Assembly: GCA_937915455.1 (NCBI GenBank) | Contig: CALDNN010000225.1 | Coordinates: 1,317-65,316 of the forward strand | Reading direction: 5' to 3' | Length of the DNA: 64,000 nucleotides | DNA from: an uncultured Clostridia bacterium | GTDB taxonomy: Bacteria > Bacillota > Clostridia > Christensenellales > CAG-138 | Shown here: positions 15,920-61,930 of the stretch, one piece after another | How the letters are laid out: every line of letters starts with the position of its first letter | Numbering within the stretch: position 1 is the first letter of the stretch | Program-made: the position numbers and the translations under genes | Notes under the pieces: model-generated | What the model saw: the letters and a program-made list of their open reading frames with translations, nothing else | Databases searched by the model: none | Told to the model about the DNA's origin: nothing

Positions 15920-16168
15920 CCCGGCCTCGTGGAAGTTGCTTCCTCGCTGTGGCGCTTCCGGCAATCCGTTGCAAACTTTGCATTCCCCTGCTCGCCCCGC
16001 GCATATGCCGACCGGCCCCCGCATACTCTTTACAAAGCATGTTCGGGGGTATTTCGCATGTATTCCTATATAGAGGATCGGGTATTGGCCGTGGCGGATT
16101 ATATCATCGACCACCAGGCAACCGTGCGGGCGGCCGCGGGGGCCTTCAAGATCAGCAAGAGCACGGTG
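15920..16168 (+). repeat. Copy C of the spoIIID promoter/5' CDS module (part of the intact gene)
   Basis: See copy B. Confidence 0.95.
16001..16029 (+). promoter_or_regulatory. Putative sigma-E type promoter of spoIIID
   Basis: GCATATG (16001-16007), 14 nt, CATACTCT (16022-16029). Compare the sigma-E consensus as I recall it: ZHATAxx-N14-CATACAHT. spoIIID is sigma-E dependent in B. subtilis. Confidence 0.5.
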
Positions 16169-16309
16169 CACAAGGATATGACCGAGCGCTTGACAGGGCT
16201 GGACGCCTACCGGGCGCGGGCCGTGGGGGAGATTCTCAAGCGCAACAAGGAGGAGCGGCATATTCGGGGCGGCATGGCCACCTATCGCAAGTATAAAGGC
16301 CAGGGGTGA
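16058..16309 (+). CDS. spoIIID: Sporulation stage III transcriptional regulator SpoIIID
   Basis: 83 aa: MYSYIEDRVLAVADYIIDHQATVRAAAGAFKISKSTVHKDMTERL...HIRGGMATYRKYKGQG. Collinear with B. subtilis SpoIIID (KSTVHKDLTERL, RHLRGGEAT). Confidence 0.92.
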   Translation: MYSYIEDRVLAVADYIIDHQATVRAAAGAFKISKSTVHKDMTERLTGLDAYRARAVGEILKRNKEERHIRGGMATYRKYKGQG

Positions 16310-16353
16310 AAAGGGCCGAAGATAGGCCGGAAGTGAAAATATATATTTTGTGG

Positions 16354-16382
16354 TTGACATGATAGGGCAGCCATGGTATCAT
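16354..16382 (+). promoter_or_regulatory. Sigma-A type promoter of the metNIQ leader
   Basis: TTGACA (16354-16359), 17-nt spacer, TATCAT (16377-16382). Confidence 0.6.
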
Positions 16383-16444
16383 ACATTGCAATAGGATTTC
16401 GGCGGGCGCTAAGCGCTTATGAACGGAGGAAAGGAGCAAGCATT

Positions 16445-16540
16445 ATGAAGAATTTCGCCATGGCTATGTGCGGCATGATGATGTGCGGCTCCATGTCCTT
16501 CGGGCATGGAGAGCGTGTGCGTCCATGGGTGCTGGCATAG
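16445..16540 (+). CDS. Met/Cys-rich leader peptide (31 aa) upstream of metNIQ
   Basis: RBS GGAGGAAAGGAG upstream. Sequence MKNFAMAMCGMMMCGSMSFGHGERVRPWVLA*. Six internal Met and two Cys codons lie within codons 6-17. Too short for the ORF track. Confidence 0.55.
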   Translation: MKNFAMAMCGMMMCGSMSFGHGERVRPWVLA

Positions 16541-16558
16541 CCATAGTTGGATATAGCC

Positions 16559-16591
16559 GGGCCGTGAGCGTATACGCTCGCGGCCCTTTTT
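16559..16591 (+). terminator. Intrinsic terminator (candidate attenuator) in the metN leader
   Basis: GGGCCGTGAGCG (16559-16570), TATA loop, CGCTCGCGGCCC (16575-16586), then TTTTT. Lies 45 nt upstream of the metN ATG. Confidence 0.7.
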
Positions 16592-16636
16592 ATGCGGGAT
16601 ATCATACGAGTTCGTTCAAGGAGGTATACCTGGCGC

Positions 16637-17659
16637 ATGAATGCGGCAAGAAGGAACGAGATCATCACCATCCGGGGGCTGAATAAAACCTTCGGCTCGG
16701 GGGATACGGCGGTCACCGCCCTTTCCGGGATCGATCTGACCATTTACGAGGGGGAGATATTTGGCATCATCGGCCTCTCCGGTGCAGGCAAGAGCACGCT
16801 GGTGCGCTGCATGAACTATTTGGAAAAGCCCACCGAGGGCAGCGTGGTCATTGCGGGCCAGCCGCTGGAATCCCTGGCCGAGGGCGAGCTCCTGACGGCC
16901 CGGCGCAACATGGGTATGATCTTTCAGCAGTTCAACCTGCTGATGCAGAAAACGGCCCTGCAAAACATCTGCTTCCCGCTGGAGATCGCGGGCGTATCCA
17001 AGGCGTATGCTATGGAGCGGGCACGGGAGCTGCTCTCCATCGTGGAGCTTACGGATAAGGAAAAGGCCTATCCGGCCCAGCTCAGCGGCGGGCAAAAGCA
17101 GCGGGTTGCCATCGCCAGAGCCCTGGCGGCCAACCCCAAGGTGCTCTTGTGCGACGAGGCCACCAGCGCCTTGGACCCGACCACCACCCGCTCCATCCTC
17201 GACCTTTTGCGGGAGATCAACCAAAAGCTTGGCATCACCATCGTGGTGATCACCCACGAGATGAGCGTGATCGAGGAGATCTGCTCCCGCGTGGCCATCA
17301 TCGACAACAGCCGCATCGCCGAGATCGGCAGCGTAGAGGATATCTTCATGCGGCCCAAGACGGAGATCGCCAAGCGCCTGCTTTACGCCAGCGGCCGCCT
17401 GGGCGAGGAGATGATGGGCGAGAGGTGCCTGCGCATCATCTTCGACGGCACCAAGACGTCTAGCCCCGTGATCTCCAACATGGTATTGGAGTGCGGCGCG
17501 CCCGTGAACATCCTCTTTGCCGACACCAAGACCATCGATGGCAAAATGGTGGGCTACACCCTGGTACAGCTTCCGGAGAACGATACGGTGGTCGAAAAGA
17601 TGAAGCACTACCTCGACCTGCATAGCGTGCATTATCAGGAGGAGGCCTACCATGTTTAA
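16637..17659 (+). CDS. metN: Methionine ABC transporter ATP-binding protein
   Basis: Walker A GLSGAGKST, signature LSGGQKQRV, and a C-terminal NIL domain. Start trimmed to 16637. Confidence 0.9.
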   Translation: MNAARRNEIITIRGLNKTFGSGDTAVTALSGIDLTIYEGEIFGIIGLSGAGKSTLVRCMNYLEKPTEGSVVIAGQPLESLAEGELLTARRNMGMIFQQFNLLMQKTALQNICFPLEIAGVSKAYAMERARELLSIVELTDKEKAYPAQLSGGQKQRVAIARALAANPKVLLCDEATSALDPTTTRSILDLLREINQKLGITIVVITHEMSVIEEICSRVAIIDNSRIAEIGSVEDIFMRPKTEIAKRLLYASGRLGEEMMGERCLRIIFDGTKTSSPVISNMVLECGAPVNILFADTKTIDGKMVGYTLVQLPENDTVVEKMKHYLDLHSVHYQEEAYHV

Positions 17660-18314
17660 TCAACAAATGCTGGAGCTGCTGGGCAACGAGACCCTGGCGA
17701 GCCTCTACATGACGCTGGTCTCCACCGTGATCGCCTATATCCTTGGCGTGCCCATCGGCATTTTGCTGGTGGTCACGGCGGAGGATGGCATTAAGCCCCG
17801 CCCCGCCTTTAACCAGACCCTGGGAGCTGTAGTGAATGTGCTTCGCTCCGTGCCCTTCCTGATCCTCGTAGTATGCGTGCTGGGCCTGACCCGCTTTCTG
17901 GTAGGCACTACCATCGGATCTACAGCCGTGATCCCACCGCTGGTCATCGCCGCCGCGCCCTTTGTCGGCCGCTTGGTGGAAGGCTCCCTCAAAGAGATCG
18001 ACCATGGCGTGATCGAAGCGGCACAGAGTATGGGCGCAACCAACTGGCAGATCATCACCCGGGTGCTTTTGCCCGAGAGCCTGCCTTCTCTAATCAATGG
18101 CGCAACCATCGCCACCACTACCATCCTCAGCTACTCCGCCATGGCGGGCGCGCTGGGCGGGGGCGGATTGGGCGCCGTGGCCATCAACTATGGCTATTAC
18201 CGCTACCAGGTGGATGTGATGTGGATGGCCGTGGTGATCCTGGTGCTTATCGTACAGCTATTCCAAGTCGCGGGTAACAAGCTGACCATCGCTTCGGATA
18301 AGCGCCGGCGCTGA
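17652..18314 (+). CDS. metI: Methionine ABC transporter permease
   Basis: 220 aa, 5 TM, with the EAA-type loop IEAAQSMGAT. Confidence 0.9.
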   Translation: MFNQQMLELLGNETLASLYMTLVSTVIAYILGVPIGILLVVTAEDGIKPRPAFNQTLGAVVNVLRSVPFLILVVCVLGLTRFLVGTTIGSTAVIPPLVIAAAPFVGRLVEGSLKEIDHGVIEAAQSMGATNWQIITRVLLPESLPSLINGATIATTTILSYSAMAGALGGGGLGAVAINYGYYRYQVDVMWMAVVILVLIVQLFQVAGNKLTIASDKRRR

Positions 18315-18388: not shown

Positions 18389-19282
18389 ATGAAGAAACTA
18401 TTTGCCCTTGTCCTCGCCCTGGTCCTGGCCCTCTCCTTTGCGGCCTGTGCCGCTGAACCCGCCGCCGCCCCTGCGGCCGAACCCACCGCCCCGGCAGCCG
18501 AACCCACGGAGCCCGCGGCTGAGCCCGCCGCCGAGCCTGCCGCTCCCGCCGAGCTGGTCAAGATCAAAGTTGGCGCTTCCATCACCCCGCATGCGGAGAT
18601 CCTGGCCGCCGTCAAGGACGACCTGGCCGCAGCCGGCTATGAACTGGAAATCGTGGAATTTACCGATTACGTGCTTCCCAACACCGCTCTGGAGGGCGGT
18701 GAACTAGACGCCAACTACTTCCAGCACCAGCCCTACCTTACGGACTTCAACGCTGAGAACGGCACGCATCTGGTTTCCGTGGCCGCCATCCACTATGAGC
18801 CCTTTGGCATCTATGCCGGCAAAACAGCGGGCCTTGCGGACTTGGCCGATGGCGCTACTGTAGCCATCCCCAACGACGGCACCAACGAAGCTCGCGCGCT
18901 TTTGCTGCTCGAGGCCCAGGGCCTGATCAAGCTTAAGGAAGGCATCGGTCTTACCGCTACCAAGCTGGATATCGCCGAGAACCCCAAGAACCTGGATATC
19001 CAGGAGATCGAGGCTGCCCAGCTGGCCCGCGCCCTGCAGGATGTGGACATCGCCGTGATTAACGGCAACTATGCCATTCAGGCCAGCCTCAAGGTGAGCG
19101 ATGCCCTGGCCATCGAGGATAAGGATTCCGTGGCCGCCGAGACCTATGCCAACGTCCTCGTCGTTAAGGAAGGCAATGAGAACACCGAGGCCACCAAGGC
19201 CCTCGTTGCCGCCTTGCAGAGCGAGACCGTGCGCCAATTCATCGAGAACACCTACGACGGCGCCGTCATCGCTAAATTCTAG
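18389..19282 (+). CDS. metQ: MetQ/NlpA family lipoprotein (methionine-binding)
   Basis: Lipobox LSFAAC and an NlpA-family body (HYEPFGIY, NDGTNEARAL). Confidence 0.9.
   Translation: MKKLFALVLALVLALSFAACAAEPAAAPAAEPTAPAAEPTEPAAEPAAEPAAPAELVKIKVGASITPHAEILAAVKDDLAAAGYELEIVEFTDYVLPNTALEGGELDANYFQHQPYLTDFNAENGTHLVSVAAIHYEPFGIYAGKTAGLADLADGATVAIPNDGTNEARALLLLEAQGLIKLKEGIGLTATKLDIAENPKNLDIQEIEAAQLARALQDVDIAVINGNYAIQASLKVSDALAIEDKDSVAAETYANVLVVKEGNENTEATKALVAALQSETVRQFIENTYDGAVIAKF
18449..18553 (+). repeat. Ala/Pro/Glu-rich tandem linker (AAEP-type) after the MetQ lipobox
   Basis: AAEPAAAPAAEPTAPAAEPTEPAAEPAAEPAAPAE, encoded by a reiterated gccgaaccc-type unit. Confidence 0.8.
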
Positions 19283-19453
19283 TTCTGCGCGGATAGCTGT
19301 CCTGCGCGGACGGCGTGCCCGGGGCACAGCGGTTCTGGTTCCCCTAGGTTTACAGGCCGTTTGTAGCCTTTCGTGCAATATGGTATACTTGGGGCGGGAG
19401 AAATTCCCGCCCTTTGTTGTATCCGAAACCATATAGAGAGGATAGGGGACTTT

Positions 19454-20176
19454 ATGCAGGAGCAGTATGTCCGCACGGCCATGCTTTTGGGCGAGGAAGG
19501 CGTAGCGCGGCTGCGCGCAGCAGCCGTGGCTGTATTCGGTTTGGGGGGCGTGGGCTCCTTCGCGGCGGAGGCCTTGGCCCGCGCCAGCGTGGGCCGCCTG
19601 CTGCTGGTGGATGACGATGTAGTCGCCCCATCCAATTTGAATAGGCAGCTCATCGCCCTGCGCTCCACCATCGGCCGGCCCAAGGCCCTTGCCGCTAAGG
19701 CCCGCATTGCCGATATCGACTCGGATACCGTGGTCGAAGCCCGAATATCCCGCTATGAGGCCGCCACGGCGGATGATTTCGACCTTGCGGCCTATGATTA
19801 CATCATCGACGCTATCGATTCCGTCACTTCCAAGCTCCTGCTCATCGAGCGAGCTAAAGCGGCAGGCACGGCCATCATCAGCAGCATGGGCACGGGCAAC
19901 AAGCTCGACCCAACGGCCTTTCGCGTGAGCGATATCGAGCAAACCGAGGTCTGCCCGCTGGCCCGGGTGATGCGACGAGAGCTGAAGCGCCGGGGCATCC
20001 GGGGCGTGCGGGTGGTCTGGTCCCCAGAGGAGCCACGCGCGCCGCAGCTTAGCGCCGAATCAGCGCCCCCAGGCCGCCGGGCCATCCCGGCCAGCATCAG
20101 CTTCGTACCGGGCACGGCAGGCCTCATCTGCGCCGGTGAGGCCATCATGCATATTGCGGGCTTAAATAAAAATTAA
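19454..20176 (+). CDS. tcdA: tRNA threonylcarbamoyladenosine dehydratase (ThiF/E1-like)
   Basis: Start trimmed to MQEQYVRTAMLLG. GLGGVGS nucleotide loop and SNLNRQ motif. Confidence 0.8.
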   Translation: MQEQYVRTAMLLGEEGVARLRAAAVAVFGLGGVGSFAAEALARASVGRLLLVDDDVVAPSNLNRQLIALRSTIGRPKALAAKARIADIDSDTVVEARISRYEAATADDFDLAAYDYIIDAIDSVTSKLLLIERAKAAGTAIISSMGTGNKLDPTAFRVSDIEQTEVCPLARVMRRELKRRGIRGVRVVWSPEEPRAPQLSAESAPPGRRAIPASISFVPGTAGLICAGEAIMHIAGLNKN

Positions 20177-33935: not shown

Positions 33936-34013
33936 TGGTGGGGATGGAGGGACTCGAACCCCCGACCTCTTCGATGTGAGCGAAGCGCTCTAACCGGCTG
34001 AGACTACATCCCC
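33936..34013 (-). tRNA. tRNA-Val (anticodon CAC), CCA encoded
   Basis: Reverse complement: GGGGATGTAGTCTCAGCCGGTTAGAGCGCTTCGCTCACATCGAAGAGGTCGGGGGTTCGAGTCCCTCCATCCCCACCA. Acceptor GGGGATG/CATCCCC; anticodon arm CTTCG-CTCACAT-CGAAG; T arm GGGGG-TTCGAGT-CCCTC. The D stem is imperfect. A terminator hairpin lies at 33897-33932. Confidence 0.8.
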
Positions 34014-61847: not shown

Positions 61848-61930
61848 GCGGCTGTGGTGGAATCGGCATACACAGCAGACTTAAAATCTGCCGGGAAACC
61901 ATGCGGGTTCAAGTCCCGCCAGCCGCACCA
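61848..61930 (+). tRNA. tRNA-Leu (anticodon TAA), CCA encoded
   Basis: Acceptor GCGGCTG/CAGCCGC; anticodon arm GCAGA-CTTAAAA-TCTGC; long variable arm; T arm CGGG-TTCAAGT-CCCG. Confidence 0.88.

Follow-up and report, generated by a model that had tools for sequence, protein, structure and literature searches.

A methionine- and cysteine-rich leader ORF as a candidate ribosome-mediated attenuator of metNIQ in Clostridia

Methionine (Met) genes of Firmicutes are taken to be controlled by S-adenosylmethionine (SAM) riboswitches, T-boxes or protein regulators, and leader-peptide attenuators are rare in Clostridium-class Firmicutes. To our knowledge, methionine is the one common amino acid without an established textbook example of leader-peptide attenuation, and we know of no experimentally characterised Met-specific leader-peptide attenuator. 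Here, we analyse the leader of metNIQ, a methionine importer operon, in a 64-kb stretch of DNA from an uncultured Clostridia bacterium (the window, 64,000 nt). A 31-codon open reading frame (ORF) rich in Met and cysteine (Cys) codons and an intrinsic terminator precede metN. Based on sequence comparison and fold modeling, this leader is probably a ribosome-mediated transcription attenuator keyed to the charging of tRNA-Met and tRNA-Cys, in line with what a first-pass annotation of the same DNA had suggested.

The classical leader-peptide attenuators of amino acid operons are trpL, hisL, thrL, pheL, leuL and ilvL of E. coli (PMC1262725, PMC2965389). As in those systems, the window carries a promoter-proximal ORF of cognate codons, an intrinsic terminator before the first structural gene and a predicted antiterminator 5' strand at the ORF end, so that ribosome position would decide the fold. 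Possible sequestration of the leader's ribosome-binding site is a further likeness, and a hairpin following the regulatory codons (P2) occupies the position of the 1:2 pause hairpin of the trp leader. Unlike the classical attenuators, the window leader would sense both Met and Cys and control an importer instead of a biosynthetic pathway. Its host is a Clostridium-class Firmicute, and the regulatory logic is complicated by the additional role of Met as the initiating residue.

The closest proposed counterpart is 'metL', a leader peptide predicted for metNIQ of Streptomyces lividans TK24 and put forward as a methionine-dependent attenuator (PMC8079986). It is likewise a short ORF directly 5' of metNIQ with Met-Cys pairs (..RCMCRRMCAF). 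It differs in being actinobacterial and leaderless, with 29 amino acids, two internal Met residues and no recognised intrinsic terminator, and it comes from the annotation of one genome, unaccompanied by comparative or structural work. Compared by eye only, metL and the clostridial leaders show no sequence relation beyond the Met-Cys pairs. Leader peptides of Cys codons have been described as polycysteine leaderless small ORF attenuators in mycobacteria (bioRxiv 10.1101/834739) and predicted in Actinobacteria (PMC1262725). They share with the window stalling at sulfur amino acid codons upstream of sulfur-metabolism genes and a conserved codon run. They differ in having Cys-only runs on leaderless mRNAs, in phylum and in target genes, and they use no intrinsic terminator, attenuation depending on an attenuating fold or possibly on Rho.

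The usual control of Firmicutes met genes is exerted by S-box (SAM-I) and other SAM riboswitches (Grundy & Henkin 1998; Rodionov et al. 2004). The S-box likewise attenuates transcription before methionine transport and biosynthesis genes, but senses SAM through a conserved four-way-junction aptamer, which was found neither in the window nor in 40 related loci. T-boxes with Met specificity are exemplified by the leader of S. aureus metICFE-mdh (PMC3771891). They have in common with the leader described here a terminator/antiterminator read-out, tRNA-Met charging as the signal and, at two related loci (L066 and L076, see below), the genomic position before an orthologous metN. A T-box is a structured RNA of about 220 nt that binds uncharged tRNA directly, without translation, and the window leader has no T-box features. 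Ribosome-mediated attenuation exists in Firmicutes, as shown by the ilv-leu attenuator peptide of S. aureus (PMC5794164) and by His leader peptides of Bacillus hisS/hisZ; the latter survey reports nothing for metN (Naville and Gautheret, PMC2965389). Such leaders can replace T-boxes, but they concern other amino acids and taxa and are unrelated in sequence. Our literature search recovered no Met-specific leader peptide described in Firmicutes, although its coverage is incomplete and an earlier description elsewhere is possible. The proposed mechanism is of an already known kind, and its Met plus Cys specificity and its spread in Clostridia appear to be undescribed.

The leader elements in the window, all read on the + strand by inspection of region 16200-16760 and by consensus scans, are as follows (UTR, untranslated region; SD, Shine-Dalgarno; MFE, minimum free energy).

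16354-16382, + strand: sigma-A type promoter, TTGACA, 17-nt spacer and TG-extended TATCAT, 11/12 consensus matches
16404-16418, + strand: 5' UTR hairpin P0, GGGCGC-UAA-GCGCUU, present in the stalled-ribosome folds
16427-16438, + strand: purine-rich SD region of the leader ORF, GGAGGAAAGGAG, ending 6 nt before the ATG
16445-16540, + strand: leader ORF of 31 codons, translated as MKNFAMAMCGMMMCGSMSFGHGERVRPWVLA, stop codon at 16538
16460-16495, + strand: regulatory codon cluster, Met6, Met8, Cys9, Met11-13, Cys14 and Met17
16489-16511, + strand: hairpin P2, CUCCAUGUCC-UUC-GGGCAUGGAG, 10 bp, directly after the Met run, its 5' arm containing the Met17 codon
16511-16536, + strand: predicted antiterminator 5' strand, the last 9 sense codons of the ORF, comprising GAGCGUGUGCGU, CAUGG and CUGGC
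16556-16579, + strand: predicted antiterminator 3' strand in the MFE fold, overlapping the terminator 5' arm, its loop and the top of its 3' arm
16559-16591, + strand: intrinsic terminator (attenuator), stem 16559-16586, GGGCCGUGAGCG-UAUA-CGCUCGCGGCCC, then UUUUU at 16587-16591

This anatomy agrees with the first-pass annotation, which had called a good sigma-A promoter at 16354-16382, a 31-codon ORF at 16445-16540 with a strong ribosome-binding site, and a GC-rich hairpin with a U-run at 16559-16591, 18 nt after the stop codon and 45 nt before metN. The promoter is supported by its 11 matches and TG extension, and the ORF by its translation and the GGAGGAAAGGAG element. The six internal AUG codons (codons 6, 8, 11-13 and 17), including the triple run, and the two Cys codons (9 and 14) that had been placed within codons 6-17 are likewise all there. 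A TTGACA box and a TG-extended -10 box lie at the same place in other leader lineages by sequence comparison. Transcription would start at about 16389-16391, some 55 nt 5' of the leader ORF. The terminator stem comprises 12 pairs, 10 of them G-C, with an energy of -26.4 kcal/mol; it begins 18 nt past the leader stop codon, and the end of its U-run is 45 nt from the metN ATG at 16637. Across lineages, 95.7% of alignment cells in the terminator are paired and three pairs carry compensatory changes. At the position of P0, relatives have hairpins of different sequence; P0 may serve 5'-end stabilisation or be part of a closed fold.

The leader ORF is the sole intergenic SD-preceded small ORF with at least four internal Met codons on either strand of the 64-kb window. 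Gene callers report it on eight public contigs, each time between spoIIID and metN and each time unnamed and without a Pfam family. Searches of Pfam and NCBIfam at E<=10 assigned no family to the window peptide or to three other representative leader peptides, and one Herbinix-type peptide gave a chance-level NCBIfam match only (E = 0.23, 11.2 bits against a cut-off of 24).

To place the leader in a comparative context, a MetN scan taking one genome per species was used, which yielded 80 Clostridia loci (labelled L001 onwards), and the 450 nt before each metN were examined. The closest MetN relatives belong to Candidatus Pelethousia metagenome-assembled genomes (MAGs; 96% identity), which places the window in this genus or close to it. 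An SD-preceded Met/Cys-rich small ORF was present upstream of metN in 55/80 loci, and the leader ORF is strictly tied to metN across families. As a control, dinucleotide shuffles of each upstream region (n=1520) were subjected to the same ORF selection. Among the 76 loci with at least 400 nt upstream, 66% had an SD-preceded ORF with at least five internal Met codons, compared with 0.07% of shuffles. Met and Cys make up 19.2% and 11.8% of residues in the 54 distinct leader peptides. ATG triplets inside the leader ORFs fall in frames 0, 1 and 2 with counts of 323/37/36, a partly circular measure since the frame was chosen by Met count.

The leaders form three groups that are barely alignable with one another. 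Group A, to which the window belongs, spans seven lineages and has the peptide core GMMMC(G/C)SMS(F/L)GHGER(V/L)R. Group B, exemplified by MTNRAMNMCRMCVIMLPEFDSGCMRFGV, lies downstream of spoIIID as group A does. Group C (Herbinix type) is the largest, occurs in Herbinix (including the cultivable Herbinix hemicellulosilytica T3/55T, L027), Lachnospiraceae and many Bacillota MAGs, and follows the pattern MRTSxxxMCxNMCGMCxMP... When metagenomes were scanned with the group A core, 82 matches were obtained, all upstream of metN, and no new lineage. As for close copies, two contigs from fermentation metagenomes were compared with the window over 240 nt of the leader: L149 is identical and L117 has a single base change. 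L166, again from a fermentation metagenome, encodes the same leader peptide. Human gut metagenomes very commonly contain the L010-type leader, on dozens of contigs.

The reading frame is maintained in group C only where the Met and Cys codons are. In 42/42 Herbinix-type leaders, the last Met codon (ATGCC) lies a multiple of three nucleotides from the start codon, and the eight distinct gap spans found within the Met/Cys segment (3, 3, 3, 6, 9, 9, 18 and 21) are all divisible by three. Just past this segment there are 1- and 2-nt indels, and the distance to GTGAATGTG... is split 26/11/5 modulo three. The C-terminal tails are frame-shifted versions of one another, with stop codons in at least three places. 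That the frame is held only through the Met/Cys segment indicates selection on translating these codons and not on the peptide product. Judged from the sequences, the group C pattern is the signature of a leader peptide, and it argues against both a functional micropeptide and a purely RNA-level motif. In the invariant N-M-C-G-M-C core, 23 sequences differ from one another by synonymous changes at third positions, an illustrative observation only, as the sequences were chosen by this motif. In case of group A, the N-terminal codons cannot be aligned, and the distance from the start to MMM is 27 or 30 nt in every lineage. Met/Cys enrichment in frame is, in these alignments, the sole property conserved across the three leader groups. 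The comparison of relatives proposed by the first-pass annotation thus found the Met and Cys codons to be the conserved part of the small ORF.

No known RNA sensor was detected in the window leader. With Rfam 15 at gathering thresholds, the 64-kb window contained no riboswitch of any class and only two tRNAs, whose genes lie at 33939-34013 (-) and 61848-61927 (+). At E<=10 over 16300-16700, Infernal returned two chance-level matches and no SAM, T-box or other family, which bears out the earlier failure to find SAM-I core motifs or T-box elements by eye. The covariance models of S-box/SAM-I (RF00162) and the other SAM classes, as well as that of the T-box (RF00230), were unmatched in the window leader. 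No S-box, T-box or other riboswitch preceded metN in 20 leader-bearing related loci, and the S-box was absent from all 40 related loci scanned (20 with and 20 without a leader ORF). In two of the 20 loci without a leader ORF, a T-box was found directly 5' of metN: in L066, an Oscillospiraceae MAG (2685-2940, 107.5 bits), and in L076, a Lachnospiraceae MAG (2644-2898, 96.1 bits). Since these were detected by the same search, the negative result in the window is meaningful. Both T-boxes occupy the place where other loci have the Met/Cys leader ORF, and their specifier, which we read as GAA-N-AUG-G in the alignment, is apparently AUG (Met). T-boxes with such a specifier at the same position imply that the signal sensed in this operon clade can be tRNA-Met charging.

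The competition between terminator and antiterminator was modeled on a transcript covering 16390-16596, with the ribosome footprint masked from -17 to +13 of the A site. The window leader folds more stably than shuffles (z = -2.7). The terminator is part of the MFE fold both without a ribosome, in which case 16478-16524 is paired with the 5' UTR, the SD region and the start codon, and with a ribosome placed on the stop codon. With the A site at Met12, Cys14 or Met17, it is replaced by the antiterminator, which consists of helices 16511-16522:16568-16579 (12 bp), 16524-16528:16562-16566 and 16532-16536:16556-16560. When the ribosome was scanned codon by codon along the ORF, the energy of the best antiterminator fold minus that of the best terminator fold was -3 to +2 kcal/mol for A site codons 11-18; values were +1 to +7 at earlier positions and +6 to +17 between codon 20 and the stop. 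Most of the other six lineages likewise show a minimum over the Met/Cys cluster that is several kcal/mol deep, and the profile of L009 is nearly flat. The footprint of a ribosome stalled at codons 11-17 reaches to about 16496-16506. Because the 5' strand lies inside the last nine codons, a ribosome at the ORF end would occlude it and a stall at codons 11-17 would free it. Mutually exclusive terminator and antiterminator folds are therefore predicted in the window when a stalled ribosome is masked, the very outcome that the first-pass annotation had proposed looking for.

Comparative data give this switch partial support. In transcripts cut before the terminator 3' arm, which represent the kinetically relevant state, the terminator 5' arm pairs upstream in all lineages. 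The antiterminator duplex in the window has an energy of -20.4 kcal/mol, and z-scores against shuffles for the post-P2 segment and the terminator 5' arm were -1.9 (window), -2.6, -0.6, -1.0, -3.9, -3.4 and -4.6. Across lineages, 92.7% and 93.6% of cells are paired in the two possible registers of the antiterminator; its changes comprise several one-sided ones that preserve pairing and one compensatory pair. Further, the ORF-end 12-mer GAGCGUGUGCGU (variants GAGUGUAUGCGU, GGGUGUAUGCGU and UUAUGUAUGCGC) and the unusually conserved terminator apex/3' arm GCGUAUACGCUC with its variants are complementary at 9-12 of 12 positions. This complementarity holds in eight lineages, including group B with its otherwise different peptides, and substitutions such as A for G facing U, or C for U facing G, keep the pairs. 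The antiterminator is well supported in the window and plausible across groups A and B; covariation does not amount to proof of it. As a separate observation, the terminator apex GCGUAUACGC (16568-16579; equivalents in L001, L005, L012 and L030) is a perfect palindrome that is kept across lineages with differing leader peptides, although the loop and upper stem of terminators are not usually conserved, and it mirrors the GYGURUGCG element conserved at the leader ORF end.

Four of the five defining features of an attenuator were found in silico: a short ORF with a ribosome-binding site, conserved enrichment of cognate codons, an intrinsic terminator and a mask-dependent antiterminator, for which the comparative test was partly convincing. 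The fifth would be a physiological response of read-through to the charging of the cognate tRNA, dependent on translation of the leader. In the proposed mechanism, with Met and Cys plentiful, the lead ribosome would pass codons 23-31 to the stop codon at 16538 and cover 16511-16536. With this strand covered, the 12-bp terminator at 16559-16586 would fold and transcription would end before metN. If Met-tRNA or Cys-tRNA were scarce, the ribosome would stall in M11-M12-M13-C14-G-S-M17 and melt the 5' arm of P2. The stall would leave 16511-16536 free to pair with 16556-16579, the terminator would be blocked and the polymerase would enter metNIQ. An untranslated leader would form the terminator. 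We infer translation of the leader, stalling upon starvation and kinetic coupling between ribosome and polymerase. Many Firmicutes convert Met to Cys, so that a Met importer also relieves Cys shortage, which may be the physiological reason for the Cys codons.

Several results weigh against this proposal. In the window itself, an A site at Met13 leaves the terminator with a slight advantage. In full-length folds of most other lineages the terminator is thermodynamically preferred, so that antitermination there must be kinetic, through a pre-formed helix. With an early choice of footprint, full-length constrained MFE folds kept the terminator in all lineages, and the antiterminator emerged only with truncated transcripts or a refined footprint; the conclusion therefore depends on kinetic reasoning. 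Thermodynamic margins are only a few kcal/mol, and the ribosome footprint is itself a modeling choice. The duplex scores of L005 and L006, two of the seven lineages, were no better than shuffles. There is almost no two-sided covariation in the antiterminator, which results from the high conservation of the segment, and slid controls at +/-2 still pair at about 57-73%, because the alternating purine/pyrimidine (GYGY) sequence fits several registers. In group C, no antiterminator overlapping the terminator was found when the GUUUUCAU block was compared with the sequence upstream of the terminator (median z -0.39). The invariant nucleotide block (P2 and GAGAGCG) is more conserved than coding requires, leaving room for an additional function at the level of the RNA or the nascent peptide. 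Lastly, Met starvation also limits the initiator tRNA, and lower translation of the leader could then favour termination.

The leader may also regulate access to its own start. The SD region GGAGGAAAGGAG is complementary to CUCCAUGUCCUUC (16488-16502), which forms the 5' arm and loop of P2, and this pairing is part of the MFE fold without a ribosome. Across 10 sequences, the pairing of 16424-37 with 16488-16502 (SD:anti-SD) is 87.7% paired as compared with 53-66% in slid controls, and one pair changes from A-U to G-C in four sequences (L008-L010 lineages), which gives it weak comparative support at the sequence level. Once a first ribosome has translated the leader, this pairing may sequester the leader's own initiation region, and by inference such sequestration would limit translation to that first ribosome. 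P2 itself keeps all 10 pairs without variation in 10 sequences of the window's leader group; owing to this invariance the alignment is uninformative for or against the helix. P2 may act as a transcription pause or synchronising hairpin, or as an anti-antiterminator. Group C loci have a conserved RNA block, GATARGTGAATGTGRTGTTTTCATGATGC, that lies behind the Met/Cys codons and whose frame differs between genomes (e.g. L013:2707-2898 and L027:2720-2918). RNAalifold pairs the start-codon region AUGAGAACAUC with GAUGUUUUCAU of this block, with one compensatory pair in four sequences, a pairing that would explain the conserved 'MRTS' N-terminus. This suggests that groups A and C both close their own initiation region once the first ribosome has loaded.

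Two other pairings within the leader were rejected as parts of the switch. The first-pass annotation had listed alternative pairings, which turned out to be only partly the relevant ones. GGCTATG/CATAGCC is indeed predicted in the window, as 16460-75:16530-44 of the centroid fold, but it is not conserved; as an anti-antiterminator it is lineage-specific. Pairing between regions 1 and 2 scored better than shuffles in L008 only, was marginal in the window and L003 and was absent in four lineages. The motif GGCTATG lies at 16462-16468 and the second ATAGCC at 16553-16558, each one position from where it had been put. CTCCATG/CATGGAG, listed at about 16491-16513, is present and lies at 16489-16495 and 16505-16511. 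The second candidate, a long zipper between 5' UTR and ORF that would sequester the antiterminator strand, appears in the window MFE fold and was no better than shuffles or the cross-lineage matrix.

Among alternatives to attenuation by codon stalling, the one that fares best, although improbable, is an undescribed metabolite riboswitch (a new SAM or Met class) or a protein-binding RNA, with the ORF incidental or secondary. Its sensor would comprise P2, the GAGAGCGYKUGCGU block and the SD:anti-SD pairing. In lineages whose MetN proteins are only about 80% identical, a stretch of about 50 nt (GGCAUGAUGAUGUGYNGCUCCAUGUCCYUCGGGCAUGGAGAGCG) is near invariant, third codon positions included. Further, the SD region pairs with the P2 5' arm with one compensatory change, as in SD-sequestering SAM riboswitches, and the Herbinix-type block, read in different frames and paired with the start-codon region, points to a constraint on the RNA. 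However, Rfam 15 provided no family match even at E<=10, and what is conserved amounts to a simple hairpin whose structure includes no conserved internal loop or junction. The three leader groups have hardly any nucleotides in common yet all retain an SD, a start codon and Met/Cys codons in frame, which a ligand pocket would not explain, and the indels in the Met/Cys segment are all multiples of three.

Still less probable is a nascent arrest peptide of the TnaC, SpeFL or CGS1 type, which would sense a sulfur metabolite in the exit tunnel and not tRNA charging. Conservation of the GMMMC(G/C)SMS(F/L)GHGER(V/L)R core across Pelethousia-type lineages would fit such a peptide, as would the Met-Cys dipeptides that recur in the predicted Streptomyces metL (RCMCRRMCAF). 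The conserved residues coincide, however, with P2 and the antiterminator helices, which explains their conservation; L006 changes RVR to CMR and keeps the pairing. The Herbinix-type C-terminal tails are frame-shifted, and the three groups share Met/Cys enrichment only and no peptide motif. In addition, an importer needs induction when its substrate is scarce, which fits codon starvation but not metabolite-induced arrest.

We give even less weight to a functional Met/Cys micropeptide (for metal binding, oxidant scavenging or as a transporter accessory) in which case constitutive, leaky read-through would supply metNIQ. A strong promoter, an SD and a terminator belong to the ORF itself, gene callers pick it up, and Met- and Cys-rich peptides can bind copper or zinc. 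Against this, no promoter separates the terminator from metN and the operon relies on read-through, the peptides are unconserved apart from being rich in Met and Cys, and their tails differ in frame. Across families, the link between the ORF and metN is strict, a T-box replaces the ORF in two related loci, and no known peptide family was matched. Equally hard to credit is an amino-acid-unspecific coupling to translation (erm-type or linked to guanosine tetraphosphate, ppGpp) with Met codons as a by-product of CAUG-rich palindromic helices: CAUG/GCAUGC is self-complementary and used in many predicted helices, but AUG is overwhelmingly in frame (323 vs 37 and 36), Cys codons are co-enriched, the association is specifically with a methionine importer and the T-box counterparts have an apparent AUG specifier.

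The proposed attenuator is followed by the operon it would control, with these features.

16637-17659, + strand: metN, Pfam ABC_tran and NIL
17652-18314, + strand: metI, Pfam BPD_transp_1
18389-19282, + strand: metQ, Pfam NlpA lipoprotein (Lipoprotein_9)
19391-19413, + strand: terminator-like hairpin after metQ from the consensus scan, likely the operon end

The consensus scan found no promoter-like site between the attenuator hairpin and metN, which makes metNIQ expression dependent on read-through. Directly upstream of the leader lies spoIIID (Pfam SpoIIID, 15929-16309). Gene callers report an 83-residue product and its start is thus probably downstream of 15929. The gene order spoIIID-leader-metNIQ is conserved in groups A and B and points to a spore-forming Clostridium-class bacterium. 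A ThiF-family ORF (19373-20176) follows metQ. Its listed GTG start at 19373 overlaps the hairpin at 19391-19413, so the true start is probably further downstream; the called product of the equivalent in L163 has 240 residues, compared with 267 for the listed ORF. In several Herbinix- and Mobilitalea-type genomes, a pair of tRNA-Thr(GGU) and tRNA-Pro genes lies about 150-2000 nt 5' of metN (L021, L025, L027, L044, L041, L048, L051 and L063), and in L041, L048, L051 and L063, which have no leader ORF, only about 150-290 nt separate tRNA-Pro from metN. These genes were set aside as mere synteny, being tRNA-Thr and tRNA-Pro and not tRNA-Met.

In conclusion, the metNIQ leader of the window belongs to a wider set of Met/Cys-rich leaders that many Clostridia have before metN instead of the customary riboswitches, and we lean, by a small margin of confidence, towards the following broader view. 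Met/Cys leaders would form a large unrecognised class of attenuators that displaces S-box and T-box control at metNIQ in several clostridial families and has arisen convergently in Streptomyces. Their interleaved codons would sense both amino acids, and the initiation region would be closed by long-range pairing (SD:anti-SD in group A, start region with the conserved block in the Herbinix group), such that only the first polymerase-coupled ribosome is read. In a more radical variant, the invariant P2/SMSFGHGER core would add a layer of direct metabolite or nascent-chain sensing. As an attenuator, the leader could be used as a compact Met/Cys-responsive genetic switch, and it raises the question of how Met can be sensed by a device that itself needs initiator Met-tRNA at the same time. 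If the attenuator reading is true, it would explain dozens of unannotated or "hypothetical" genes of 20-40 codons before metN and would constitute a natural case of interchange between leader peptide and T-box at related metN loci. It would also mean that ribosome stalling directly senses sulfur amino acid charging, and does so widely, in gut and fermenter Clostridia.

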